64,000 nucleotides of DNA from a virus (lineage: Duplodnaviria > Caudoviricetes), in IMG/VR virus record IMGVR_UViG_3300007770_000001; one strand, written 5' to 3'. The notes beneath the pieces are model-generated. The model was not told the origin of the DNA and made no database searches. It saw nothing but the letters and a program-made list of their open reading frames with translations. The position numbers and the translations under genes are program-made. Positions 10,353 to 37,248 of this stretch are shown piece by piece. The first letter of the stretch is position 1. Each line of letters begins with the position of its first letter.

Positions 10353-11525
10353 CTACGCGGGGACGACGCCCACCTGGCGCTTGAACACCAGCCCGTGCTC
10401 AGCCAACCACGTTTCGAATCCCTGATCGACCCAGGTCATCGACACCATCCCCTGGTGGACACCTTTGTCTACGATGACCTCTCCTTGACCATGGAAGGGG
10501 AACTTCTGTCGTAGCTCTCGGGGGAGCTCGTTGAAGTCGATCACGACTTTGCTTGCAGGCACCACCGCTTTGACCAACCAGTTGATCGACTTCTTGGCTT
10601 GGCCCGCCGCAAAGTTGGTCGCGACCTGAGCGGATACGGACCAGCTGCTCTCCTTCCCCCGCTTCACCTTGATCTTGTCTCCAACGTGGAGCTTGGTCAA
10701 GTCTCGGACTCCTGTGCGGCGGAACAGTCTCTTCTTGACATCGGCCATAGTGACGCCGGAGTAGTCCCCCCAGTCATCGACCTGAGTCCCAAATCCCCGG
10801 TACACGGTCACCTGGGTGTAGTCCTTCGGCGAGTTCTCAAGGAGCCACTCCTTGACCGGTTTCTTCATCCGCTTCCCAGGATTCTTCGTGTACCGAAGGA
10901 GCTCGTCGATCACCCAGTCTGGCATCGTGAACCCTTCGGCTCCCGGCCCGGCGTCGATCCTCTGGGCTGCGCCATCCACTATCGTCCCTTGGTTCAGGAC
11001 GATGTCGGTCCAGACGTAGTTGACGTGTCTGTCTACGATCCCATCAAACAGAACCCGGAACTTCTTGGCTGTGGTACCGAGCGTGTTGGCATCACGGCCC
11101 ATCGTGTAGCCATCCAGCTTGCCTGCCAGAACCTTGGCCATTTGAATGTGGTCTTCGGGGAAGGTCATCCCCCAGTAGCGATCGAGGGCCTCCTTCGTGA
11201 TGGCTCCCGCTTTGATCGCCCGGTAGCAGTCTCTTTCACTGCCGTCGAACAGTTTGAGCCCTCGATACATGTAGATGTAGTTGTCCATCCCTGCCAAAGA
11301 GCGCACTCCGACATTCCGACGCCATCGCACATAGGACTTCGCGGGTCTCACCGGGAGGAGGCTGTTGTTCGCTTGACGCCCTCCCCACTCGAAGTACATC
11401 GCCCGACGCTGTAGGTCGGGCATCTGGTCGACGAGGTGGGGGAGGAACAGGTAGAAGTTTCCCTGGAGAGCAGCCTGGTGGAGCCCGGCCACCCGCTGGG
11501 AGCATACTTGTAGGGGGGGTGTCAT
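10353..11525 (-). CDS. Protein with C-terminal ADP-ribosyltransferase-like domain
   Basis: TVYRG ... ESSWSVSAQVATNFA ... GQGEVIV (R-S-QxE arrangement). Confidence 0.6.
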   Translation of the reverse strand: MTPPLQVCSQRVAGLHQAALQGNFYLFLPHLVDQMPDLQRRAMYFEWGGRQANNSLLPVRPAKSYVRWRRNVGVRSLAGMDNYIYMYRGLKLFDGSERDCYRAIKAGAITKEALDRYWGMTFPEDHIQMAKVLAGKLDGYTMGRDANTLGTTAKKFRVLFDGIVDRHVNYVWTDIVLNQGTIVDGAAQRIDAGPGAEGFTMPDWVIDELLRYTKNPGKRMKKPVKEWLLENSPKDYTQVTVYRGFGTQVDDWGDYSGVTMADVKKRLFRRTGVRDLTKLHVGDKIKVKRGKESSWSVSAQVATNFAAGQAKKSINWLVKAVVPASKVVIDFNELPRELRQKFPFHGQGEVIVDKGVHQGMVSMTWVDQGFETWLAEHGLVFKRQVGVVPA

Positions 11526-11576
11526 GACACCCCCCCGGAATAGCCAAGGTACCGGACTCAGGCCGCGCGGAGGAGC

Positions 11577-11951
11577 TCAGCGAAGGTGGCCGTGAGGGGC
11601 TTGCCATCGACACACTTGGCAACGAGCGCCTCGTGGGCGGCCTTCTCTGCGGCTTTTTACACATTCCACAGGACATCTCGCGACTCGAGAGAGGGCCTCG
11701 TCCGATACCAGGCCCAGGTAGCGGTCGAGGAAGGTCCAGAGCGACTCCTGGGCGCGTTCTCCGCTTCTGTCGGGGGAAGGGTGGCGGGGTGGCTTCTTCG
11801 ACCGTCTGGAAGGGTGTTTCCGACGTGGTTTGATGCCCTTCTCTTTCCGGCGTCTCGCGACGGTGGAGGCAGTACATCCGATGCGTCCCGCGAGCACTCT
11901 ATCCACCTCTGTCCCCAGCAGCGGGTCCCATTTCTCCCAGTCGTAGGCCAT
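11577..11951 (-). CDS. Putative DNA-binding protein with two HTH-like repeats
   Basis: LLGTEVDRVLAGRIGCTASTVARRR and YLGLVSDEALSRVARC repeats. Confidence 0.65.
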   Translation of the reverse strand: MAYDWEKWDPLLGTEVDRVLAGRIGCTASTVARRRKEKGIKPRRKHPSRRSKKPPRHPSPDRSGERAQESLWTFLDRYLGLVSDEALSRVARCPVECVKSRREGRPRGARCQVCRWQAPHGHLR

Positions 11952-11998
11952 GCCCTCGTTACCCTATATCCTGGGGGAGCCCAACTCCTGAGGTCATC

Positions 11999-12799
11999 AT
12001 GAAGGTTCTCCGTCAGGGCTCTCGAGGCTCCGAAGTTCGTCGTCTACAGCAGCTCCTCAACATCGGCGCCGATGGCATCTTTGGCGCCGGGACCAAGAGG
12101 TCCGTCATCGCGTTCCAGAAGTCGAAGGGCCTCTCTGCTGATGGCATCGTCGGCAAGGGAACGTGGGGCGCGCTCGAGAAGGACTCGGGGGAACCGATCA
12201 ATCCAGACCCCGAGCCTCGGACGGCTGACTGGCTGGTCGCCCAGTACCAGGCCAAGGGCTACATCCTCCACACGGGGGGTCGGGTCAACTTCGGCTCTCT
12301 CCGGACCATCCCCGGAACGCCCAACAGGTTCGATGACTTCGTCTTCATGCTCTGGCAGGAGGGGGGTGTCTGGAAAGTCACGTTCTTCGAGGCCACTACC
12401 GACCCAGGCACCTACTGGCTGGAGAACCCGGGGAACTCTCGAGGAACGGCCATCCTGTGCCCTGGCCAGTACGTCGACGTCTACAAGATCGACAAGCACG
12501 GTGGGAAGTACGAGGCGCTTTGCCAGAGGAACGGCAAGGTCAAGGTGTGGCGGGACAAGGACCGCGACGCCGTTGCCGAGTACCAGCAGGGCTCCGAGGG
12601 CGAGGACGGGTGGTATGGGATCAACATCCACCGCGCTTCCTCGAGCCGCATGTCCACGAACGTGGAGAAGTGGTCTGCGGGCTGTCAGGTGATGGCGGAC
12701 CCTGACGACTTCGCTCGGTTCATGACGACCTGCCACTCCGAGAAGAAGCTCCATGGGGAGACCTTCACCTGGACTCTCTTGGAGAACCACGTCTCGTAG
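11999..12799 (+). CDS. Endolysin-like: peptidoglycan-binding domain + L,D-transpeptidase-like (YkuD-type) catalytic domain
   Basis: ADGIFGAGTKRSVIAFQ...ADGIVGKGTW; INIHRA...WSAGCQV. Confidence 0.8.
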   Translation: MKVLRQGSRGSEVRRLQQLLNIGADGIFGAGTKRSVIAFQKSKGLSADGIVGKGTWGALEKDSGEPINPDPEPRTADWLVAQYQAKGYILHTGGRVNFGSLRTIPGTPNRFDDFVFMLWQEGGVWKVTFFEATTDPGTYWLENPGNSRGTAILCPGQYVDVYKIDKHGGKYEALCQRNGKVKVWRDKDRDAVAEYQQGSEGEDGWYGINIHRASSSRMSTNVEKWSAGCQVMADPDDFARFMTTCHSEKKLHGETFTWTLLENHVS

Positions 12800-23187: not shown

Positions 23188-26100
23188 ATGGCGACCCAAG
23201 ACAAGTTCTTCCCCGGAAGCAGCGTCTCCCGCTACCTCATCCCGGGCGAGAGAAGCTGGGGAGAAGCTGTGTACCAGAGCGGGAAGCCCGTTCTGGATGC
23301 CGAGCTCATCCTCTCCCAGGAAATCGTCCGCGAGATGCAGGGCCTCCTGTGGGACCGAGAGACTCCCTCTGGTTGGCTCCGAGGACCTGTTCCCCTCGAT
23401 GGGAATGACTTCGCGGGGTCTCCCACGGCGAACTCCCTCCGCATGGTCAAGCGTACAGCTTTGGTGGCGGGCCTTCCGGTGGTCGTCGAATACACAGGAA
23501 CGACCACTCCTTCCCTGAACGAGATCGTCCTCGATGCCGCGCCGATTTTCGGGGGAGCTCCGCCGGATGTCAAGAGAACGGACTTCATCTTCCTCGAGGT
23601 GTTCCGGGCCCTCGTGTCTCACAGCCCTCGGGCTTCTGCGACCACGGAGGTCATCACCAACGCTGACGTGACGGCAGGAGATACGATCACCATCAACGGG
23701 ACTCCTCTCACTGCTGTGGCGGGTGCTCCCGCCGCCGACGAGTTCCAGATTGGTCTGAACGAGAACGCTACCGCTTCGAACATCGCAGCAGCCATCAATC
23801 TCCCAGGCAACAGCTTCACCAGCATCTGCACCGCAACGACGGATGTCGCGAACCCTGCTCTGGTCAATCTCCGTGCTGCGGATGCTTTGGCTGGCGCCGC
23901 CGGGAACGCTATCACCCTGACTCTCTCCCTGACGACAGGCGGCGCCATCCAAGTCAATGGTGGTGCAGGGCCCACCACGTTCTCTGGGGGTTCGGATACC
24001 TCGAACAAACCGACCCAGGCGACCCTGTATCGCCACGGGAACGTAGACGTTCCTTCGGGAGTGAACTTCCCTGATGATATCGCGGACCCCACCATTGGAA
24101 CCGAGTCCACCAAGCGGGTTCAGATCCAGTACCGCATTCGCACCACAGGGCAGTCCGAAGCCGTCAACTTCAAGACAGGGAACGGCTTCGAATCCTCCGT
24201 TCTGGCTCAGGGAACCCAGTCCGCCCCCGTCGCAGGCTATCCCTTTGTCCCCGCAGATGGGACGTCCTCCAGCGGCTCTTCAGACGCTTCTGCCTACCAA
24301 CGGGTAGACGCGGGCCTTTGGGTTGCTGGGGACGGCTCAGAGGCCGCTGCCACCGCCCTGGGGACAATCGATGGCTATGTCTACGCGGTTCCGATGGCAA
24401 TGGTCTTCCGGCGGAACGATGCATACAACGGAGGGGCCGGCGGGGGCTGGAATCCTCTGACGAATACCAATGGTGCACTCCCCCGTGTCCATGGAGGCTT
24501 TGCCAACCCTGTCGTCGGCGTTATCCCTGCGAACTCTTCAGACCGCCCAGATGGCCGGTTCCATGACGAGATTCTTCCCGCCGATGTGATGGATCTCCGG
24601 AAGCAGGTCTCCCCTGGAGGAATCGATCTGAAAGCGGAGCTCGAGCGGCAGATGACGTCCCTGATGGACGGGAACTTCGGAACCTGGGCCATCGATGCGG
24701 CGGACAAGAACACTCTGGGTGCAGGTTCCGGAGATGTAGGAACTCAGTTCCTGGTCTGCAATGAGGTGGGTCGCTCCGCAGCGAAGGGCGGAGTGGCTCC
24801 GGACAGCGGAAGCACCACTCGGGGCAACGGTATCGGGGACTTCGACCACATCCGCCGTCGGTTCGCTGACTGGCCTGTTGTGGAGCGTCGGGTTCTCCCA
24901 ATCCTCCCCACCGATCTGGTGGGCGCGCAGCCTGGCAAGTACGTCGCCAAGGTCACCGGGGGATACACGACGTGGGAAGCAGGGGATGTGCTTCACATCG
25001 ACCTGGACACCCTGGACGCCACCGGCCTTGGTGGCTGGGCCCACGCTCCCTCTGGAGTTCCCACAGGAGGAGGTGCTGTCACCAACCTGTGGCCTCTTGG
25101 GACCAAGGTGACCAACGTCCTCCGAGTCTTGCATGACGACGGCAACTACAACGCAGCCATCGACAAGAACGTAGCTCTGGACCAGGTCGTTGGTGTGGGG
25201 ACACCCCATATCGAGCTCACACTCGGACGGAACACCCTTCAGGCTACCGGGGGGATCAACGTCGCAGGATACGACCTGGTAGGTGCCGGAGGCGGAGGAG
25301 ACAACAACTCACCACGGCGCATCTGGGTCGAGCTCGAGATCACGTATCCAACGGCAAACGGGACAACCGACACCCCTGTAGAGATCACTCCCGACGCTAC
25401 TGTGTATCCCTCAGGACCGGTTTTCGAGAACCAGACCTCCCAGCGGCCTGATGACTGGGAAGGGGTCATCCAGCCCAAGTACAGGGATGGGGCTCGTGAG
25501 GTAGGTCTGGAGTACATCACCAACGACGGCTCTGGCGCCGGCTCGGGAACTCCGATCACGGACCTGGTCGTCAGCGACTCTACGACTACAGTGACGATGC
25601 CGCGCCGTGTCTATGGTTCGGGGGTCACGACGACCACCGTGACTGACCAGGTGTCCACTCTGCCTCGGGCGGTGGACACCGCGACCACCCCTTATGGGTC
25701 CAGCGCCCGTCGCATCGATCTTCAGGACCCTCTCTCAGGAGCGGGTCAGACCCTGGTCTCGGTGGAGTACTTCGCCCAGGACCCTCTTCCGAACTGGGGG
25801 GCCGTAGGCTACCAGCTGTCCTGCTACTTCAGGTCCGATGCTCCTCAGACTCTGGGCGTTCAGGCGGGAGCTCCCGGAACGGTGCAGATGCCGACGACGC
25901 TCCTTCTGCGTCCCCTGGTTATGTCCCGAACGCTCTGGACAGGCACAGCGGGAGCGGGTAGTGCTGATCTCCCGTATCCCTATGCCAAGCCTCTCGACCA
26001 GATCGCGGTCAACGGGGACCAGAGCCCGTCTCCCTTCCCTGGGGAATGGATCCTCTCGGCGAACGCCTCCATCTCGATTGCTGACTTCAGTGCAGAGACG

Positions 26101-26460
26101 GGCCTGCTGAATCTCCAGCAGCTGGTTCCTGTGGATGGGAACCAGGATTTCCAGTTCAGTTCCCTGGATGTAGACTCGGAGTTCCGAGTCGCATACAAGG
26201 TCTCGGACACGAGTGCCTACCGCCCGGTAGCCATGGCCCAGCCCCTCTCCGGAATCGCAACCCACAAGGTCTGGTTCCCCTTCTTGGCTCGTGCCTCTGC
26301 TGACGGCACCTTCTTCCGGAAGGATGAGGTTCTCCTGGTTGTGGTGAGCCGCTTGGCTATCCTGGACAACACCAACGTGGTGCGGTTCGTGGACTCCAAC
26401 AACGATACATGTGCCGCCGTCTATCGGACGAGGGGCATCTTCCTCTTGGCGTCGGAGTGA
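23188..26460 (+). CDS. Large tail/baseplate-associated virion protein, 1090 aa (paralog of 31909..37248)
   Basis: G/T/S/A-rich; shares KPVLDAE, RTDFIFLEV, RVQIQYR, DGYVYAVP, RPDGRF blocks with 31909 gene. Confidence 0.8.
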   Translation: MATQDKFFPGSSVSRYLIPGERSWGEAVYQSGKPVLDAELILSQEIVREMQGLLWDRETPSGWLRGPVPLDGNDFAGSPTANSLRMVKRTALVAGLPVVVEYTGTTTPSLNEIVLDAAPIFGGAPPDVKRTDFIFLEVFRALVSHSPRASATTEVITNADVTAGDTITINGTPLTAVAGAPAADEFQIGLNENATASNIAAAINLPGNSFTSICTATTDVANPALVNLRAADALAGAAGNAITLTLSLTTGGAIQVNGGAGPTTFSGGSDTSNKPTQATLYRHGNVDVPSGVNFPDDIADPTIGTESTKRVQIQYRIRTTGQSEAVNFKTGNGFESSVLAQGTQSAPVAGYPFVPADGTSSSGSSDASAYQRVDAGLWVAGDGSEAAATALGTIDGYVYAVPMAMVFRRNDAYNGGAGGGWNPLTNTNGALPRVHGGFANPVVGVIPANSSDRPDGRFHDEILPADVMDLRKQVSPGGIDLKAELERQMTSLMDGNFGTWAIDAADKNTLGAGSGDVGTQFLVCNEVGRSAAKGGVAPDSGSTTRGNGIGDFDHIRRRFADWPVVERRVLPILPTDLVGAQPGKYVAKVTGGYTTWEAGDVLHIDLDTLDATGLGGWAHAPSGVPTGGGAVTNLWPLGTKVTNVLRVLHDDGNYNAAIDKNVALDQVVGVGTPHIELTLGRNTLQATGGINVAGYDLVGAGGGGDNNSPRRIWVELEITYPTANGTTDTPVEITPDATVYPSGPVFENQTSQRPDDWEGVIQPKYRDGAREVGLEYITNDGSGAGSGTPITDLVVSDSTTTVTMPRRVYGSGVTTTTVTDQVSTLPRAVDTATTPYGSSARRIDLQDPLSGAGQTLVSVEYFAQDPLPNWGAVGYQLSCYFRSDAPQTLGVQAGAPGTVQMPTTLLLRPLVMSRTLWTGTAGAGSADLPYPYAKPLDQIAVNGDQSPSPFPGEWILSANASISIADFSAETGLLNLQQLVPVDGNQDFQFSSLDVDSEFRVAYKVSDTSAYRPVAMAQPLSGIATHKVWFPFLARASADGTFFRKDEVLLVVVSRLAILDNTNVVRFVDSNNDTCAAVYRTRGIFLLASE

Positions 26461-29400: not shown

Positions 29401-30168
29401 TTGGCGAACGCAGACGGGGCCGGAGTAGGTTCCGATGAGATCGACGGGGTCGTGGTCCAGGGGAACTACGTCGAGGACTGTACCGGAGGTGGAATCTGGG
29501 TCCAGGCGGACTCTCATATCGTCGGGCTGGACATCTCGAACAACCTGGGCAAGGACAACGGCGCCCACACTGTCACCGTTGTCTTGGCTGCCGCCACCCA
29601 GGATACCATTTCGGAAGCTCTCTCCATCCGTGGGAACACTGATCGAGGAGGGCCCGGTGTGGTGAGCTTCACCTCGAGCCACGGACTGGCAGGCCTCACG
29701 GTCTCCGACAACATTGCGCAGGGCTTCACCGGGACTGCCCTCAAAGTGGATATCGGGAGTTCCTCTTCTGGGATCAGCATCACCGGGAACAACCTCCGGG
29801 AGGATCTCCTTACCACCAACTCAGTTGGGATGGACATCGATCTCCCGAACAACGGCTTGCTTGGACTCACCATCTCCAACAACACCATCCGACAGGACAA
29901 CGGCTCCAGTACCAGCATGACCGTGGACTACTCGGGGGCGGGTACGAGTGCGAAGGGTGTATCGATCTGCGGGAACGCATTCTACGGGGCGACCACCAAG
30001 GTCACACGGACCTTCATGACGGTGGATGGGGGGCAGTGCTCGAACAACCTCGAGATCCCGGATGCTGGTTCTGGGGGCTGGGGCAACGGCGGGGCGGGAA
30101 CTTTCACTGACCAGACAGGAGGATCCCCTCCCTGGGCCAACTCCACTACTGTGAACAACCAGGACTGA
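26467..30168 (+). CDS. Tailspike-like protein with right-handed beta-helix repeats, 1233 aa
   Basis: Many (I/V)xxNx(I/V) PbH1-type repeats; N-terminal HVNDPSESH...VEGALQE anchor-like segment. Confidence 0.8.
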   Translation: MPRNVNPAGISTGGGTVAPNSVEDSSLRNHLRDTRPLEAHVNDPSESHMAVTVRITDSGGMYTSDEVEGALQEIGAGQSGGRTNGWLQGGTWTAVGNTLTLDTPSLALIGSSEVSFSGSSIALPDGTRWVYIDATTGNLTSDTVAPNLVNEPILVGLVVTTGGVINVLTSTDARFFVSQLDRKPALTLRETGGTNATAEGCFVTLEAALLYLQTYAATGASEAETQTIVVRGPITLPTTVTIPVPGIRFVGDGEDAAFVTGATLNPMFDVDGVTNTQFLDLTFRADHTGSIAVASTGSPVLSFRMERCRVISGAQDWDIGVNFPDATAVNTATIRDCLFEADTRGILIDRAHDTLVEHTRIIEKGAAGVSGIELNLSGPFAGEGNNHIRACRVSGFTTGASLTGDGSTISSTTLEGSNIGLRLDGGETSATDLQILLSSTTGVDGILADGIPSITGCSINCPRTVWAAENPQGITVLATASKARITGNNIYGFENATSGSGIQFSASSIQSILSGNTITNCTDGIHCLPGVLNCAINTNTISDCNVGIRVEGNDIDTQRSSNISIVGNLVTESGETGILLVGEILDTSVEGNIVDGAIPGSETDPTSNGILVSAANANLPSRIQVVNNLVWRCTSGIEARGTNATLQVAEISIQGNMVHHCAFPENISGVTNTYDGRGSKGIGLEWCSKAQVIQNNIHKIGTGIDNSEVEAFPNGGGAIRDVQSISIYARNCDRLSVDGNDVRDSVALDFNTTGFPLAHGIFIEVNSVATGADFEANDYSICDNQITWAAILPGVAGGGERGISLEVTAGSDSDTNLLRFVKTSGNMIRRTRRSGIRYIVSGSVAGGSSGILHAQINDNMVWNACGQAALVGESQGGIVIEALGTGTGDPMEIVDFLVQGNILENIGSLAATDGTGILFALFREANLRDISVVGNKVTDAKDYGIFLRVDSTITGGPSNLDRWLISNNTVRNTDFTGILANADGAGVGSDEIDGVVVQGNYVEDCTGGGIWVQADSHIVGLDISNNLGKDNGAHTVTVVLAAATQDTISEALSIRGNTDRGGPGVVSFTSSHGLAGLTVSDNIAQGFTGTALKVDIGSSSSGISITGNNLREDLLTTNSVGMDIDLPNNGLLGLTISNNTIRQDNGSSTSMTVDYSGAGTSAKGVSICGNAFYGATTKVTRTFMTVDGGQCSNNLEIPDAGSGGWGNGGAGTFTDQTGGSPPWANSTTVNNQD

Positions 30169-30169
30169 C

Positions 30170-30985
30170 ATGCAGATCCACGCCAACCTCGCCTCTGACT
30201 CCGTTCTGGGCACGGCCAGCGATCCGATCTCCGGAGGTTCCACCCTGGTGAACGGCAAGTACACGCTCCCGGTTCCGGAGGGTGTCTCCGTTCCGGTGAC
30301 TGCGAGCTCCTATGTTCTCCCCAAGGACTCGGGATCCCTCCAGACCCTCATCGCCAATGATCTCTTGGCCCGGAACCCTGGGTACCAACACCAGACGAGC
30401 AACTTCTTCGCTGCTTCTGCGGACATCGCCCTCCTGGACTTGGGAGCCGCCCCGTTCCCCGCCGCAGGGAACATTTCTACAGGAGCCGTTCCTGTGGGAG
30501 TCCCTGCGTCTGTTGCGCGTTGTCAGGTAGGTCGTGGAGCCGGGCCGGCTCCGGTGGGGATCGCTCCCAACTCCGTGGCCATGCTTCCGATCAACCCCAA
30601 CGCAGCTTCCACCACCTACGGTTGTATCATAACGGATACTCTCGACATCACCTCCTTCAACCCGGGGAACCCAGGGACGGATGAGGTGATGGTTTGGTGG
30701 AAGGTTGCCCAGATGTCTACAACCGAGGATATCGTCACCGGGTACAACATCACCGGAAGTCTCAACACTCCGGCGCGGAAGACCCTCGATGAGACTTCCC
30801 AGACCCCTCCAGGTCTCCTCGTCTATGCAAGTGTGGACGATGGTGTGACCTGGCGTCAGGTCCAGCATCTTCAGCCCACCGACTTGGTTACTCCCGGAAT
30901 GGATCTCCGACTGGCTTTCGTCAACGACTCTGCCGCCAAGATCCATCTCCTCGGGTACGTTGTGATGTTCCCCGATCTGCCCTAA
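30170..30985 (+). CDS. Probable virion structural protein, 271 aa
   Basis: Packed in tail operon; structural-protein composition. Confidence 0.7.
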   Translation: MQIHANLASDSVLGTASDPISGGSTLVNGKYTLPVPEGVSVPVTASSYVLPKDSGSLQTLIANDLLARNPGYQHQTSNFFAASADIALLDLGAAPFPAAGNISTGAVPVGVPASVARCQVGRGAGPAPVGIAPNSVAMLPINPNAASTTYGCIITDTLDITSFNPGNPGTDEVMVWWKVAQMSTTEDIVTGYNITGSLNTPARKTLDETSQTPPGLLVYASVDDGVTWRQVQHLQPTDLVTPGMDLRLAFVNDSAAKIHLLGYVVMFPDLP

Positions 30986-31042
30986 GCGGTTCCCCGCCTA
31001 TACAGATCGGCGGGTAGCGCACCGGTAGAGAAGGGATCCAGT

Positions 31043-31909
31043 ATGGCTCAAGATTTCGGCACCGGCGTCTCTCGTACGCTCTCTGCTGCGGATCCTGTGC
31101 AGTATCGTGGATTGGGGGGGGTTTATCGTCTCTGGGTCTCCCCCCACCATTTCTACGTAGGGAGATCCAGAGATCTTCTCTCCCGTATTCGACACCACAG
31201 GAACTCCTTGTGTCGGAACGCCCATTCTAACCAACACATGCAGAACACTTTCAACAAGTACGGTGGTTTTCGGTGGGAAATCATTGCTCTTTCTGAGGAC
31301 AGAGCAGAGCAGGTCCAAATCGAGAGAAGTGTGTTGGATGACCTCTACAGGACTTCTGGATGCTTGAACAAAAGTGATCGGGCTGTAGGGGGGTGTCGGA
31401 AAGGTCCTCTGTCCGAGAAGACTAAAAAGAAAATCTCGGAAACCAAACAGAAGAACCCGTATCAAGCCACTCCCGAAGCTCGTGCTCGGATGAGTGCTGC
31501 TGCGAGGGGACGCCCCAAAACGGCCGCACACGTCCGGAACAATGCAGAGGCTCAAAAGGGGAAGAAGTTGTCCCCGGAGACCAAACGGAAGATCTCTGAG
31601 TCTCTGAAAGGCAGGAAGCCTTCTCCGGAAACTGTAGAGAAGATTCGAAAAGCGAACCTTGGGAAGAAACGCACTCCCGAGCAGAAGAGACGTCTAAGTG
31701 AAGGGCAGAAGGGGAAAGTTCTCACGCCGGAACATCGCCAGAAAATATCCGAATCCCTCCGGGGTCGGAAACATTCCGAAGAGGCCCGGCGGAAGATGTC
31801 TGTTTCCCAGAGAGGTCGTACTCACTCTGAGGAAACAAAAGCGAAAATTGCATCCGCTCGAAGAGCTTACTTCGAACGGAAACGAGCCCAAGCCCGCCCG
31901 GAGGCCTAA
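31043..31909 (+). CDS. GIY-YIG homing endonuclease with NUMOD3 repeats, fused to 17 codons matching the downstream gene's N-terminus
   Basis: GVYRL...FYVGRSRDL..R...H; repeated xSEETKxKISE motifs; N-term MAQDFGTGVSRTLSAAD. Confidence 0.9.
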   Translation: MAQDFGTGVSRTLSAADPVQYRGLGGVYRLWVSPHHFYVGRSRDLLSRIRHHRNSLCRNAHSNQHMQNTFNKYGGFRWEIIALSEDRAEQVQIERSVLDDLYRTSGCLNKSDRAVGGCRKGPLSEKTKKKISETKQKNPYQATPEARARMSAAARGRPKTAAHVRNNAEAQKGKKLSPETKRKISESLKGRKPSPETVEKIRKANLGKKRTPEQKRRLSEGQKGKVLTPEHRQKISESLRGRKHSEEARRKMSVSQRGRTHSEETKAKIASARRAYFERKRAQARPEA

Positions 31910-31959
31910 TGGCTATGAATTTCGGTAATGGCGTCTCTCGCACCCTGTCCGCTGCGGAC
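31094..31959 (+). mobile_element. Inferred GIY-YIG cassette carrying a replacement 5' end of the tail gene
   Basis: 31043-31093 vs 31909-31959: 14/17 aa, 39/51 nt identical; insert is AT-richer than flanks. Confidence 0.7.
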
Positions 31960-34900
31960 AGGGGTTATGCGGTCGTCGTATGGCAGGTTGACAAACCGCC
32001 TCTGGATTCTGAGTTCAACCTGGCTGCCCAGGCTGCTTGGGAGCGTGAGGCCAATGCGGTCCGGGCGCAGATGCCCTCAGGGTTTCTCCTGGACCCGTTC
32101 CAGTCGGATGCCGACTACGTCACGGACGAGAACTGGTCGAACTGGCTACAGTTGGGACGTCCCGCAGCAGGGGATCAGACCCCGGTCCTTTGGGCCAATG
32201 TCAACGGGTGGCTCATCCCCGTAGCGGGCTCCAACGCCACTGATCTGTCCAACCGGATCAACCTCTGGAACCCGCCGACTACGGATGCCCGCACGGACTT
32301 CATCTTCCTCGAGGTCTGGCTCTCCCTGGTGGCTCCCAACCCCTCCACGGTCAACAAGCCTTCTGCGAGCACGATCTACAAGTACGGGAACACGGAGTTT
32401 GGCGGTACCAACATCGCCGATGATCTCATGGACCCGAACATCGGGATCGAGACTTCGGAGCGGGTGCAGATCCAGTACCGACTCCGAGTCGTGGGGCAGG
32501 GGGCAGGACTGGGCTCCAGCGTGGATCTGACCACATACCCTGACGGGCTGGGAGACCCCAACGTCCTGGCCCAGGGCAATGCGACGGCCCCCCAAGCAGG
32601 TCTCTCCTACGTCAACATGGGAGAGACCCTGGGAGATCCCGGTCTCTGGCGGGCGGGGGATGGAGACTCCACCAACGCTCTTGCGACGGTGGACGGCTAC
32701 TCCTACGCAATCCCCGTGTGTGGGATCTTCCGGCGAAACACGAGCTCGTTCGTCGCGAGGACCACCAGTGGGAATGCCAACCAGAACGGAGCTCTGGATC
32801 GCAACCCAAGCTCTACCACCCCGACCACTCCCGTTGAGGCGACCAGGACATTCACCGAAGTCACGTTGACCTCAGCGATCGACGAGACTGCAACCGGCGC
32901 TGTACAAGTTGACGGGCTGGCCTCCTCGGGTCTGGACAACAGCGACATTGACTGGGATAGCACGTTCCTCGTCATCGATGGCGAGATCATCTACATCGAG
33001 AGCGTCTCGACCGCCACCACTCCCGGGACGATCACCATCAGGGCCACTGAAGGCCGGGGTCGGAACGGAACACAGGCAGCCCCGCACGATGCTGGGGTCT
33101 CCGTACAGTTCTACAACTTCCGCCCTGATGGGAAGTTCTCCGACCAGATCCTTCCCGACGACATCCTCGACCTACGGCGAGGAGTCCAGGCAGGGGACTG
33201 GGACTACAAGGCCCTGCTCGCTCACAATCTGGGCAAACTGTTCGAGAACACCCTCAAGTCGGCGTTCAAGCAGGCCGGTCCCTCGGATACCCAGGGACCT
33301 GTGGTCTTCGAGGTGGACACCCTCCACGCCAACTCGGCGACCTCGACTCCCAACCAGACCGAGGCCCTGGACGGCCCTGACGGTATCCGGGAGGTTTTCT
33401 CCGATGCCTCGGTCCTACAGTCGAACGTTTCTATCATCCTGAATCCCGAGATTGGATCCGGGGGTTCTGCGGTGGTCATCTCCGACTTCACGTCGGACGC
33501 AACCTCCTGGGGTCCTGCAGCTGAGTTCGTCCCTGACGGATTCCAGCCGGATGGCGGGGGTTGGGACAACCAGACGATCATCCATCTCTACATCGGAGGA
33601 GCGACCGGGTCTGGAGGCGCTCGCGCCACCGTTCGTGGGAGCGAGAACAAGATCGTCCGCTTCATCTCCCCACGGGAGCATTGGCTTACCCGCGATGAGA
33701 TCGAAACCGATGCCGGCATCGGCGTTTCCGGAAACCAGTACCCGTTCCTGTTCCGTCTCCTTGAGGAAGGTTGGGGGGACCCTGCCGGGGCTGACGAGCC
33801 TGCTGTGCAGCACCCGGGCCCCATGTTCCCCCTTCCCGAGTACAACTTCGAGCGTCCGTTCATCGTCCTCGGAGGGTCAGTCAACTCCCTCCTGGCATCC
33901 AGCACCGCAGAGGCCGTCGCTACGGGATCCAGTCCTGCCGGGTTCTCCTTGGTTCGCTTTTCGGGCCTGGACTTCGACACTCCCGGGGACTGGTTCCCCA
34001 CAGGCGACGTATCCAGCTTGTCCCCCGAGGGCGTCACCAACACGCTCCTCCATGGACAGCGGAACCTTTTCGATATGGTGACCAATGGAGGTCGGGATCG
34101 CTCCGGAGCGAGCTCCGAGCTCTATCTGGTTCTGGAAGGGGACCTCACCACTCCAGCCAACAACGGAGTCTGGCGGGTCATCGGAGCGGGCACCGCAGGC
34201 TACACAACGGTGGACGGAGCTACGGCCGAGGATCTCGTGGTCGAGCGTGTAGGGGTCGGCGCGAACGTCTTGGTCGCAGGGACAAGCCTCACGGCCTCGG
34301 TCCGTTCCCAGTACACTCACACCGAGGACGGAACCGTAGCTGGAGAGTCCGCTGCAGTCGTCGTTCTCACAGACCTGGGTGGGGCGGTTGGCGGGCTGAC
34401 CTACCCTTGGGACAGCCTCACATCCCTTCCTTCCGTCAGCCAGGCTGTGCTGGACACCACGATTCAGTACAATCCCAGCCGAGGCGGAACAGCTCGAGTG
34501 GCCAACAAGGTCCGTCGAGTTGCCATGGTGGGTGTGGACTCAGCGGAACTCGTTCGCGAGGCGCCGACAGGAATCGACACCAGCTTCGATTCCCAGGCTG
34601 GCATTCCTGAAGGGGAGATCTACTTCCCCTTCTCCCACGTCCAGACTTGGAACCGTCTCCCCAGCCTGGGTCTCTCTGCTCCGAGAGCTCCCGCCTATGG
34701 CAACAGTTCCTACTTCGGAGAGTATCGACGGGAAGCTGAGGCCTTCGTCGACGCAGGATCCAAGACTCTTGTTCTCCGCCCTTTCCAGAGGACTGATCTC
34801 ACCCTGGTTCGCTACCGGGCCACGGCGGGCGCCACGGATCGATTCTTCCCCGACACCTACACGGCCGGAGCCAGCGCAGGAACCTCAGTGGACGGAGGTC

Positions 34901-37248
34901 AGCTGTTCCCCTCGGATGCCGACTACGCCTACGCATTCCCCCACGAATGGATGCCTCGTCTCGGGCGTCAGGATATCCCCTTCCACCAGACCACAGGAAC
35001 CACAGGTCCAGTCTTCTACGGGGTGAATCACCTCTTCGGAGACTCCCAGACGAGCTCGGATGATGTGTTCCGCGTCCTCGGAGGCCAGGACTCCAACTCC
35101 GCAGTGGAGTCCCTCTTCTTCCAGACGGGAACCACCTCGGGGCGTGTGTATGGCGAGTACTTCGCCATGGGAGGCTCAGCCGCCGGCTACCAGGCTCGGA
35201 TCTACGAGGACGTGAATGTCCACTCCTCGGATGTCCCCAGGGGTCTGAAGGGCATCCAGCTGCCCCCGTTCCTGGGCATCGCTCGGATCTATGGAGTCTA
35301 TGACCTTCGGGAGTTCTCGGGACAGGGAGCCTGGGATGCCGATCGCGTGACCCTGAACACTTCGGGAGGGCGGCCTGCCAACCTTCTCCGTGACGACCAG
35401 GACAAGCAGACCCTGTTCATCGTCCCTGGCGGGGGCTCCGATGTCACTGGGGACGAGGACGACCACACCTACGTGATCCCCAACACCCTCATCGACGTCC
35501 GGCGCTCTGGACAGTATGTGGCGGGGGAGACCTTCGATGACCTCGAGTTCGTAGTTGAGTGTGTTGTCTTCGGGTTCGCTCGGGGCTTCATCACCAAGAA
35601 CAACTATGTCTTGGCCCGTCGGAATCTTCCCACGGGAGTGGATCCCATCGCAACCTCTTCTGCTGTTGCGGGGCAGGTTTCCTGTATTCTCCCTTTGCCC
35701 CTGCCCTACAATGAGCAGGCATACATCGCCTATGATCGCACGGTCTACCAGGGCGACCCCTACATGACTCGGGATGGGGCGACCAAGACAACTTCCGACT
35801 ACGAGAACCGCTACGGGATGATCCCTTCCTCCAGCTCCGCAGAGCTCGGGACAGCCATCCAGCAGTTCGATAGCTCCAACGACTACGCCCAGGTCCCTGA
35901 GACTCTGAACGCCCGTGGGTTCGAAGTCCTGGCCTCCGCCGACTTCTACACGACTCTCGGGACGGGCAAGGTCGGGGGTCGGATCTACTCGGGAACGTTC
36001 TTGGATATCGGTGTCGTGTCCTCATCAACACGAATCGCGGCGAGCGCCAGCGACCCCTTGTGGCAGCCCCAGGCCCGAGCCCTCACCGAAGGCCAGGCTC
36101 TGAGCGCCGCCCGGGCAGTCCTGGAGATCGAGGTTCTCACGGATAGCGCAGCTTCCGTAGGCGAGGCGATCGTCTTGGAGAGAGGAACCAAGACGAACAC
36201 TCTGGTATCGAATACGGCCTTCTCAGGAGCCACCCCGGAACTGGTCGCCCAGTCCCTCGTTGGGGCCATCAACTCCTCGGACTTCGCTGCAAGTACTGCC
36301 CAGGTCCGCGCGTACTGGAACGGTGGTCGGGTCTGCTCTCTGGTGTCGATGATCCCAGGAGCCGAAGGGAACGAGACCCACGTGAGAATGGTCCCCGCTT
36401 CCACACGGGCCGTTACAGGGTTCCGAATCCATGCCCGGGGCTCCTTGTCCCAGCAGGCTCTCTCTACGATCACCGGGTCGAACCTCATCGGAGGAGTGGA
36501 TTCTCCGATGAATGGTCGGGATGGTTCTCTGGCGACGACTCCAGTCCGGATGGCTGGCCTCATCGAGCGCCTCCCCTTGGGGATTCTCCTGCAGGACTCG
36601 GACTTCGTCGGTGAGGATCCTCTCCAGAACGGATCGAGTTCCCTTTGGGTCAATCTGAGTGGAGGGGCGGTCTCGGCAACCTCCCTGACTCCTCTCTCTG
36701 GAGACTCCGAGTACGGGCGTGTCGAGGGTTCGGGGCAGATCGCCATGGCAGACGGCGCCATCCTCGAGTACACGGCATGGACCCTTGCCCAGCCTACGGG
36801 AACCAAGAGCTTCCGCCTGTTCCGCGGAGGGGGCTCGGCTTGGGTCATCGACCCAAGCCCCGTGGGAGGCCCTGCAGACTGGTCTGCGGGAGGCTTCGAC
36901 GAGGGCTCTCAGCCCGTGCTGAAGGGCGCGCTCTTGGCTGGCCGGGCCTACTTGGTCCGGAACTTCCCCGAGACGGCCTACACGGGCTCAGACACTCGCT
37001 CGCACGGCTCCGAAATCCAGATGGTCATCTGCACCAACGGGATCTTGGGTCTCGGCCCTCTCTGCAACAAGGGCTATGACCTCAAGGGTCAGATCTCTCC
37101 CACCGGCTACGGAGAGGGCTTGGCTGCCGCTGATCGGTATCTCCTCGAAGGCCGGCCCATGTCCCGAGGACCTCGCGTGAGTGCCTCGACGACAGGAGAG
37201 TTGGCTCCCTTCCCGGGGATGGACGCGGCTGCTGATGATGGCTGCTGA
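31909..37248 (+). CDS. Giant tail/baseplate-associated virion protein, 1779 aa
   Basis: TAATG coupling; paralogous blocks with 23188 gene. Confidence 0.8.
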   Translation: MAMNFGNGVSRTLSAADRGYAVVVWQVDKPPLDSEFNLAAQAAWEREANAVRAQMPSGFLLDPFQSDADYVTDENWSNWLQLGRPAAGDQTPVLWANVNGWLIPVAGSNATDLSNRINLWNPPTTDARTDFIFLEVWLSLVAPNPSTVNKPSASTIYKYGNTEFGGTNIADDLMDPNIGIETSERVQIQYRLRVVGQGAGLGSSVDLTTYPDGLGDPNVLAQGNATAPQAGLSYVNMGETLGDPGLWRAGDGDSTNALATVDGYSYAIPVCGIFRRNTSSFVARTTSGNANQNGALDRNPSSTTPTTPVEATRTFTEVTLTSAIDETATGAVQVDGLASSGLDNSDIDWDSTFLVIDGEIIYIESVSTATTPGTITIRATEGRGRNGTQAAPHDAGVSVQFYNFRPDGKFSDQILPDDILDLRRGVQAGDWDYKALLAHNLGKLFENTLKSAFKQAGPSDTQGPVVFEVDTLHANSATSTPNQTEALDGPDGIREVFSDASVLQSNVSIILNPEIGSGGSAVVISDFTSDATSWGPAAEFVPDGFQPDGGGWDNQTIIHLYIGGATGSGGARATVRGSENKIVRFISPREHWLTRDEIETDAGIGVSGNQYPFLFRLLEEGWGDPAGADEPAVQHPGPMFPLPEYNFERPFIVLGGSVNSLLASSTAEAVATGSSPAGFSLVRFSGLDFDTPGDWFPTGDVSSLSPEGVTNTLLHGQRNLFDMVTNGGRDRSGASSELYLVLEGDLTTPANNGVWRVIGAGTAGYTTVDGATAEDLVVERVGVGANVLVAGTSLTASVRSQYTHTEDGTVAGESAAVVVLTDLGGAVGGLTYPWDSLTSLPSVSQAVLDTTIQYNPSRGGTARVANKVRRVAMVGVDSAELVREAPTGIDTSFDSQAGIPEGEIYFPFSHVQTWNRLPSLGLSAPRAPAYGNSSYFGEYRREAEAFVDAGSKTLVLRPFQRTDLTLVRYRATAGATDRFFPDTYTAGASAGTSVDGGQLFPSDADYAYAFPHEWMPRLGRQDIPFHQTTGTTGPVFYGVNHLFGDSQTSSDDVFRVLGGQDSNSAVESLFFQTGTTSGRVYGEYFAMGGSAAGYQARIYEDVNVHSSDVPRGLKGIQLPPFLGIARIYGVYDLREFSGQGAWDADRVTLNTSGGRPANLLRDDQDKQTLFIVPGGGSDVTGDEDDHTYVIPNTLIDVRRSGQYVAGETFDDLEFVVECVVFGFARGFITKNNYVLARRNLPTGVDPIATSSAVAGQVSCILPLPLPYNEQAYIAYDRTVYQGDPYMTRDGATKTTSDYENRYGMIPSSSSAELGTAIQQFDSSNDYAQVPETLNARGFEVLASADFYTTLGTGKVGGRIYSGTFLDIGVVSSSTRIAASASDPLWQPQARALTEGQALSAARAVLEIEVLTDSAASVGEAIVLERGTKTNTLVSNTAFSGATPELVAQSLVGAINSSDFAASTAQVRAYWNGGRVCSLVSMIPGAEGNETHVRMVPASTRAVTGFRIHARGSLSQQALSTITGSNLIGGVDSPMNGRDGSLATTPVRMAGLIERLPLGILLQDSDFVGEDPLQNGSSSLWVNLSGGAVSATSLTPLSGDSEYGRVEGSGQIAMADGAILEYTAWTLAQPTGTKSFRLFRGGGSAWVIDPSPVGGPADWSAGGFDEGSQPVLKGALLAGRAYLVRNFPETAYTGSDTRSHGSEIQMVICTNGILGLGPLCNKGYDLKGQISPTGYGEGLAAADRYLLEGRPMSRGPRVSASTTGELAPFPGMDAAADDGC

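Follow-up and report, generated by a model that had tools for sequence, protein, structure and literature searches.

The window is a 64,000-nucleotide stretch of phage DNA. At the locus analyzed here, an endonuclease ORF runs directly into a giant gene, and both open with copies of the same gene start. The features of the locus are as follows.

30170-30985, + strand: 271-aa gene, used as a synteny anchor (tblastn in relatives)
30987-31017, + strand: conserved upstream element, CGGT, about 8 nt, CCTATA, about 11 nt, GGGTAG
31043-31909, + strand: endonuclease ORF, 288 aa, intact; a captured leader of 17-21 residues followed by a GIY-YIG domain and NUMOD3 repeats
31043-31093, + strand: copy 1, codons 1-17 of the giant-gene family N terminus, consensus type MAQDFGTGVSRTLSAAD; opens the endonuclease ORF
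31115-31339, + strand: GIY-YIG catalytic domain, residues 25-99 (Pfam PF01541, E = 1.2e-5, above the cutoff)
31400-31870 (approximate), + strand: NUMOD3 repeats, the presumed DNA-binding part (Pfam PF07460, E = 7e-19, three stretches above threshold)
31900-31904, + strand: GGAGG ribosome-binding site of the giant gene, within the final codons of the endonuclease, 4 nt 5' of the ATG
31907-31911, + strand: TAATG stop/start overlap of endonuclease and giant gene, read from the sequence
31909-37248, + strand: giant gene, 1779 aa
31909-31959, + strand: copy 2, giant-gene codons 1-17, MAMNFGNGVSRTLSAAD; start of the functional gene

The TAA of the endonuclease and the ATG of the giant gene share one base, and both ORFs and the TAATG overlap between them are present as an earlier sequence-only reading of the window had described. 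The endonuclease is in phase with host coding sequence, in a single ORF that begins at the copy 1 ATG and includes the nuclease. The giant gene restarts at copy 2 with a complete N terminus, presumably coupled through the TAATG, as was also claimed. GGAG(A) stands at a comparable distance from the giant-gene start in relatives.

The two starts had been reported to match at 14/17 residues and 39/51 nucleotides. Codon-by-codon comparison of 31043-31093 with 31909-31959 confirmed both figures, and a tblastn search of the window with the first 41 residues of the giant gene recovered copy 1 at the same coordinates (E = 5e-6). Half of the 12 base differences are synonymous, one per codon and at the third position; the remaining six fall in three altered codons (Q3M, D4N, and T7N). 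Under 12 random substitutions, retention of 14 of 17 residues has a probability of ~0.001. The likeness ends past codon 17. Copy 1 may nevertheless extend to codon 20-21 (31105), with a one-codon insertion, based on a CAGTAT hexamer (Q-Y) that it has in common with the orphan start of a sister phage, one codon out of register. This sharing hints that the junction is identical in the window and in the sister phage.

Only 57 nt separate the stop of the 271-aa gene from copy 1, and the conserved upstream element lies within them. It occurs once in the 64-kb window; copy 2 has no such element, its 5' sequence being endonuclease coding sequence. In many huge-phage relatives, the element lies 12 to 33 nt 5' of the giant-gene ATG, and at least 25 distinct relatives have it at similar spacing before the giant-gene start (e.g., L007:3938-3985); in the sister phage, it lies 5' of the orphan copy (L087:5811-5858). 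We take it to mark the regulatory region native to the 5' side of the giant gene, with a presumed role as a promoter specific to this gene or possibly as a signal in the 5' UTR. A hairpin was also considered, but its apparent stems differ between relatives, and we therefore treat the element as a sequence motif. Since copy 1 lies behind the native element at native spacing, the nuclease ORF appears to open with the start signals of the host gene. Thus, the proposal that the insertion captured the promoter, ribosome-binding site, and start of its host stands as far as the native upstream element and ribosome-binding site region, which precede copy 1, and the ATG, with which copy 1 opens; the late expression proposed to follow from this capture is conjectural.

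The endonuclease and its distribution

The assignment of the ORF to the GIY-YIG endonucleases was borne out by the Pfam GIY-YIG and NUMOD3 matches and by a PHROGs match to phrog_314, homing endonuclease (E = 1e-30). An alignment of the protein with 16 homologues makes the NUMOD3 repeat pattern visible and has invariant Y28, G40, R48, E94, and N109. Residues 26 to 85 align to residues 4 to 63 of the I-TevI catalytic domain (PDB 1MK0). Based on this alignment and on the catalytic-type residues that are kept, the endonuclease looks intact, with ~22 additional N-terminal residues. Its predicted product is a GIY-YIG/NUMOD3 homing endonuclease of the I-TevI/Seg-like kind.

The G+C content within the ORF is 0.48 to 0.55, versus ~0.61 in the flanks, a dip that fits a foreign origin. 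An identical endonuclease protein is encoded on 12 contigs from two studies. Among the matches listed, the nearest other homologue (P0006) is 41% identical and lies in a different context, with a neighborhood unlike that of the window, and none of 119 other homologues among the matches listed has the captured leader.

The five DNA runs that contain this phage yielded no nuclease-free version of it, and no joint skipping the insert was found in the contigs of four runs. At 31081-31102, there is a contig break at low depth. Three public contigs of the window's phage break between 30596 and 30900. Inside the upstream gene, one DNA run has a minor variant of 30286-30625 (depth 3.6 versus 15.8) in which 27/340 bases differ, and both flanks are common to the two versions. 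This patch is a local mosaic, 450 to 750 nt from the endonuclease; thus, diverged left-flank sequence coexists in the population.

The giant-gene family and related loci

The family of the giant gene comprises >1000 proteins of ~1750 to 1850 aa, encoded on metagenomic contigs of up to 650 kb, i.e., by huge phages. The giant protein also has a match in GenBank, in a 485-kb uncultured phage genome; at the nucleotide level, the window locus has no match among GenBank phage DNA. The most conserved part of the family is the first ~40 residues, MAQDFGNGVSRTLSA..RQFQ.VVWQ..KPPLDSELNL, of which the 17-residue leader makes up less than half. The repeated peptide is thus, by alignment, the near-invariant N terminus of a predicted giant huge-phage protein family. 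Fused to the nuclease is a copy of the family consensus type (MAQDFGTGVSRTLSAAD). The giant gene's own start, MAMNFGNGV...RGYAVVVWQ, is a derived type common only to the closest relative, P0125. Two other apparent departures were set aside: P0140, missing the first 38 residues, has a miscalled start and no insertion, and P0148, with an "MAM" start, has a normal single-copy context and is placed elsewhere in the tree.

We also considered whether the 17-residue motif is a general leader of unrelated proteins. It appears confined to the giant family and a single paralogue in the window (23188-26460, 1090 aa), whose version has diverged; this paralogue matches the first ~530 residues of the giant protein (E = 2e-25). 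It is therefore best described, from these matches, as a family feature. The giant protein has no Pfam match and no PDB sequence match, and a lead to DUF4815 is weak. The gene directly upstream in the neighborhood matches a tail-spike PHROG, and residues 8 to 281 of the giant protein distantly match a Tunturiibacter phage Tunturi_5 gene annotated as tail fiber. These two matches make the earlier label of "tail gene" plausible, and the product is likely a tail-fiber-like virion protein.

We compared the locus with ~165 homologous loci (sets of 2, 80, and 80, plus four contigs of P0125, P0140, and P0148). Loci lacking the endonuclease, with which comparison had been proposed, do exist: the GIY-YIG endonuclease is absent from all ~165 loci fetched, with synteny otherwise preserved. 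A homologue of the 271-aa gene lies 13 to 350 nt 5' of the giant gene in most of the ~160 related loci searched by tblastn. A second copy of the N-terminal motif was found in 0/162 loci of the 2 + 80 + 80 set. Among all ~165 loci, the sister phage (L087/L088) is the only other phage lineage with the duplication.

In several relatives, other ORFs lie in the slot that separates the giant gene from the 271-aa gene homologue. LAGLIDADG-like ORFs of 270 to 410 aa, some of which overlap the giant-gene start, occupy it in L045/L046, L073, L101, L112, and L129; a BCS1-type AAA ATPase occupies it in L162/L163; and still other ORFs are found there in L122-L126 (L124 and L125 included) and L142/L146. Because other endonuclease families occur in this same slot in several relatives, the position 5' of the conserved giant-gene coding sequence is apparently a recurrent landing site for endonuclease genes. 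The window's endonuclease is likewise sporadic among relatives, at a fixed site adjoining a conserved gene.

The sister phage is represented by the P0125 contig, L087 from Logan and L088 from JGI. In a tree of giant proteins from which the first 40 residues were removed, the window and P0125 are sisters (SH-aLRT 98), each on a long branch, and across the region window DNA is 64 to 73% identical to that of L087. In the sister phage, the gene order is kept and the endonuclease is lacking; it also has two gene starts, the first of which is an orphan:

L087:5879-6001 (also in L088): uncalled orphan ORF of 40 codons, beginning MSQDFGNGVSRTLSASERQY, behind the conserved upstream element

Past codon 20 the orphan diverges, and its end forms a TGATG with the real gene start (MAMDLGNGVSRTLSAKNRAYAVVVWQ); ~63 nt lie between the two copies. 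The earlier claim that this nuclease's insertion created the duplication is called into question by the sister phage, in which the same duplication occurs without an endonuclease. The window's nuclease need not have made the duplication, which probably predates the window's lineage. The sister grouping and the shared double start make one ancestral duplication the parsimonious reading.

Pairwise identities among the four 51-nt copies of the two phages are 39, 36, 36, 35, 35, and 30/51. The functional copies of the window and L087 are identical at 36/51 bases and 13/17 residues; copy 2 shares the derived M3 and Y20/A21 with its counterpart. The orphan copies differ at 15/51 bases and keep 13/17 residues, and such conservation of the peptide under random change has P = 4e-4. 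This fits an orphan kept by selection, as a peptide or leader ORF, or one renewed by left-flank recombination with functional alleles of co-infecting relatives. Unless it was renewed by recombination, the conservation of the orphan counts against a functionless remnant of one old event.

Local alignments of the 63-nt spacer of L087 with the endonuclease were no better than shuffles, for DNA and protein alike, so this spacer holds no detectable endonuclease remnant. A spacer peptide that by eye resembles the C terminus of the nuclease failed the shuffle test. Either loss of the nuclease from the L087 lineage or a later gain in the window's lineage would fit; without a trace in the spacer, loss is argued from parsimony, and the duplication could be older than the nuclease. 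Directly 3' of the giant gene, L087 has a sigma-70-like gene on the minus strand (11358-12242), with faint to weak Pfam hits.

Origin of the double start

We favor, as fairly probable, the explanation that a free-standing GIY-YIG/NUMOD3 homing endonuclease gene sits in the extreme 5' end of the giant gene and that an old break-repair event left the double start. The highly conserved 5' coding sequence would have suffered a double-strand break, and a nuclease-bearing template would have served for its repair. One illegitimate joint would have stranded the first 17 to 20 codons of the recipient upstream, and the start of a second allele would have been copied in together with the nuclease. With the joint in frame, the host gene's own signals would drive both transcription and translation of the nuclease. 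The giant protein would be made from copy 2, by coupled re-initiation and also by direct initiation at its own GGAGG, and the giant virion gene probably still works despite the insert. The event is probably old, and a later loss of the nuclease would fit the ~63-nt spacing in the sister phage. Most simply, the 17 residues that the nuclease carries would be a by-product which supplies its expression signals.

The divergence between copy 1 and copy 2 (39/51) falls inside the between-phage allele range of 23 to 42/51, which fits an origin from two alleles. To this extent, the suggestion that the conserved peptide may come from a donor phage allele is plausible, although the 51-nt copies do not tell which of them would be foreign. 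A sliding-window comparison with L087, L007, L008, and L090 revealed no co-conversion tract, with no identity step near the 5' end; with no mosaic boundary beside the insert, the sequence marks neither copy as foreign. The related proposal that the cassette restored the tail gene agrees with the complete restart at copy 2. Its assumed direction, a native upstream copy and a downstream copy from the cassette, would be one of two that fit pairwise identities of 30 to 39/51 without a mosaic boundary.

In the favored break-repair explanation, the resident copy 2 would escape cleavage through its sequence differences. At bases 8, 56, and 59, both functional copies, in the window and in the sister phage, differ from the family consensus. 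That these changes confer immunity to cleavage is only a hint, since two deviations in codons 18 to 24 occur in 18% of family members.

The order of events might also be reversed. An older short tandem duplication would have made a leader ORF coupled to the real start, with the homing endonuclease gene entering the spacer later, in frame. The sister phage fits this order in having a 40-codon orphan and a 63-nt spacer unlike the nuclease, and the rare Y20 is possibly common to all four copies. The orphan peptide is conserved in both phages, and in each the upstream ORF terminates right at the real ATG, as would fit a leader ORF maintained independently of the nuclease. However, break repair is the only evident means of duplicating 51 to 60 nt of a gene start plus a new ribosome-binding site, a duplication without a nuclease occurs in 0 of ~160 other relatives, and both the endonuclease hot-spot slot and a second orphan-plus-endonuclease arrangement in the window (described below) tie duplications to nucleases. 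We consider this order unlikely. A related idea, that the leader is a selected upstream frame which governs giant-gene translation or carries a recognition tag, and that the nuclease was inserted without disturbing it, appears doubtful to us. If true, it would mean that purifying selection on the peptide maintains a leader frame ending on the real start in two sister phages that are deeply diverged, and that this frame heads a 40-residue peptide in one and a homing endonuclease in the other.

A function for the leader on the nuclease itself would be compatible with the favored origin of the locus by break repair. The 17 to 20 residues might serve as a tag that directs the nuclease to the virion or to some partner of the giant protein, or the target copy might be an autoregulatory operator, as I-TevI binds a homing-site-like operator over its own promoter (PMC2988022). 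The in-frame fusion is intact and identical in 12 contigs, the orphan is conserved at the peptide level between sisters, and the N terminus is the most conserved part of the family. Yet the leader covers less than half of the ~40-residue conserved block, it heads a nuclease-free 40-residue peptide in the sister phage, and it is absent from the 119 other nuclease homologues among the matches listed. Such a function is improbable, and the first two of these points speak against the earlier suggestion that the 17 residues steer the nuclease to the virion. It is far less probable still that the ORF belongs to a group I (or other) intron whose splicing joins copy 1 to codon 18. Organelle intron ORFs are commonly fused in frame to the upstream exon, which would favor an intron, and introns are reported from the structural genes of some phages (PMC3706429). 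Rfam gave no match at E <= 1 on either strand of 30000-33000, and a ribozyme core would have no space, since the ORF takes up the insert from end to end. Splicing would make the full gene start of copy 2 and its ribosome-binding site superfluous, and an intron would not fit into the 63-nt spacer of the sister phage. Pfam found no Hint or intein domain. From these searches, the endonuclease gene is predicted to be free-standing, borne by neither an intron nor an intein, in keeping with the sequence-only reading, which had treated the insert as unspliced. The only RNA contig is located inside the giant gene and says nothing on splicing.

Known parallels and a second arrangement in the window

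Fungal mitochondrial mORFs form gene hybrids with atp6 of Allomyces macrogynus; with atp6, atp9, cox2, and nad3 of Glomus sp.; with atp9 of Rhizopus oryzae; and with cox2 of Mortierella (PMC3630166). They lie in phase at the 3' end of the gene, and the duplicated C terminus diverges mostly at synonymous sites (PMC3630166). The window resembles these hybrids in several ways. Its endonuclease ORF is in phase with a piece of the host gene, a gene end is doubled, the copies are far closer as protein than as DNA, the gene is presumably functional without splicing, and a nuclease-free relative reveals the insertion point. In contrast to the mORFs, with a doubled C terminus, the window doubles the 5' end and its start signals, the nuclease inherits an upstream element, ribosome-binding site, and ATG, and a huge phage takes the place of the mitochondrion as host. 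For mORFs, the foreign copy was identified by phylogeny, whereas the 51-nt copies of the window give 30 to 39/51 and no mosaic boundary. By analogy, the locus would function like an mORF hybrid, as a 5'-end mirror image in a phage, yet it stands outside the mORF group.

Closer to the window in host are the free-standing Seg (GIY-YIG) and Mob (HNH) endonucleases of T4-like phages. In T4 reportedly, according to work of Bonocora and others from 2011, the endonuclease MobA is accompanied by the gene 60 bypass element, an extra sequence that keeps the invaded gene usable. The window nuclease likewise travels with an additional piece that would keep the invaded gene usable, but by a restart of the gene rather than by translational bypass. 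A target-like sequence at the nuclease's own expression signals recalls the autoregulation of I-TevI, with a putative operator role. The window shares with the Seg and Mob genes an I-TevI/Seg-like catalytic domain, an adjoining conserved gene, stop/start overlaps suggesting coupling, and a patchy distribution (PMC2988022). Seg and Mob genes lie between genes or split one, as mobE does in nrdA and mobA in gene 60/39 (PMC2988022). Unlike the window, they have neither a duplicated target-gene start nor a nuclease fusion on record in that review.

The locus suggests a way for a homing endonuclease to enter an essential phage gene at its most conserved part with neither intron nor intein: it would bring or exploit a spare gene start and take over the expression signals of the host gene. 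The spare-gene-end mechanism is already known for the 3' ends of fungal mitochondrial genes; for phages, PMC2988022 records no such duplication. Two cases in the window and the nuclease-free "scar" of the sister phage make up a small natural series that bears on the origin of the cassette, on how the resident copy escapes cleavage, and on functions that stranded gene starts may gain. Orphan starts and fusions also mislead gene callers: the giant gene was called from its third codon in one source, and the sister orphan ORF was uncalled.

The other case in the window is a second arrangement of orphan start, endonuclease, and full gene:

53866-55460: orphan start, putative endonuclease, and full gene

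A gapless alignment pairs the ORF at 53866-54012 with residues 1 to 45 of the gene at 55217-57553, 19 of them identical. Between the orphan and the full gene, on the other strand, sits an ORF (53980-55068) with a weak Phage_endo_I match. By this layout, the arrangement is apparently an independent parallel case, without fusion. Elsewhere in the window, an ORF at 247-1440 has a weak TnsA-like endonuclease hit as its only match (E = 0.009).
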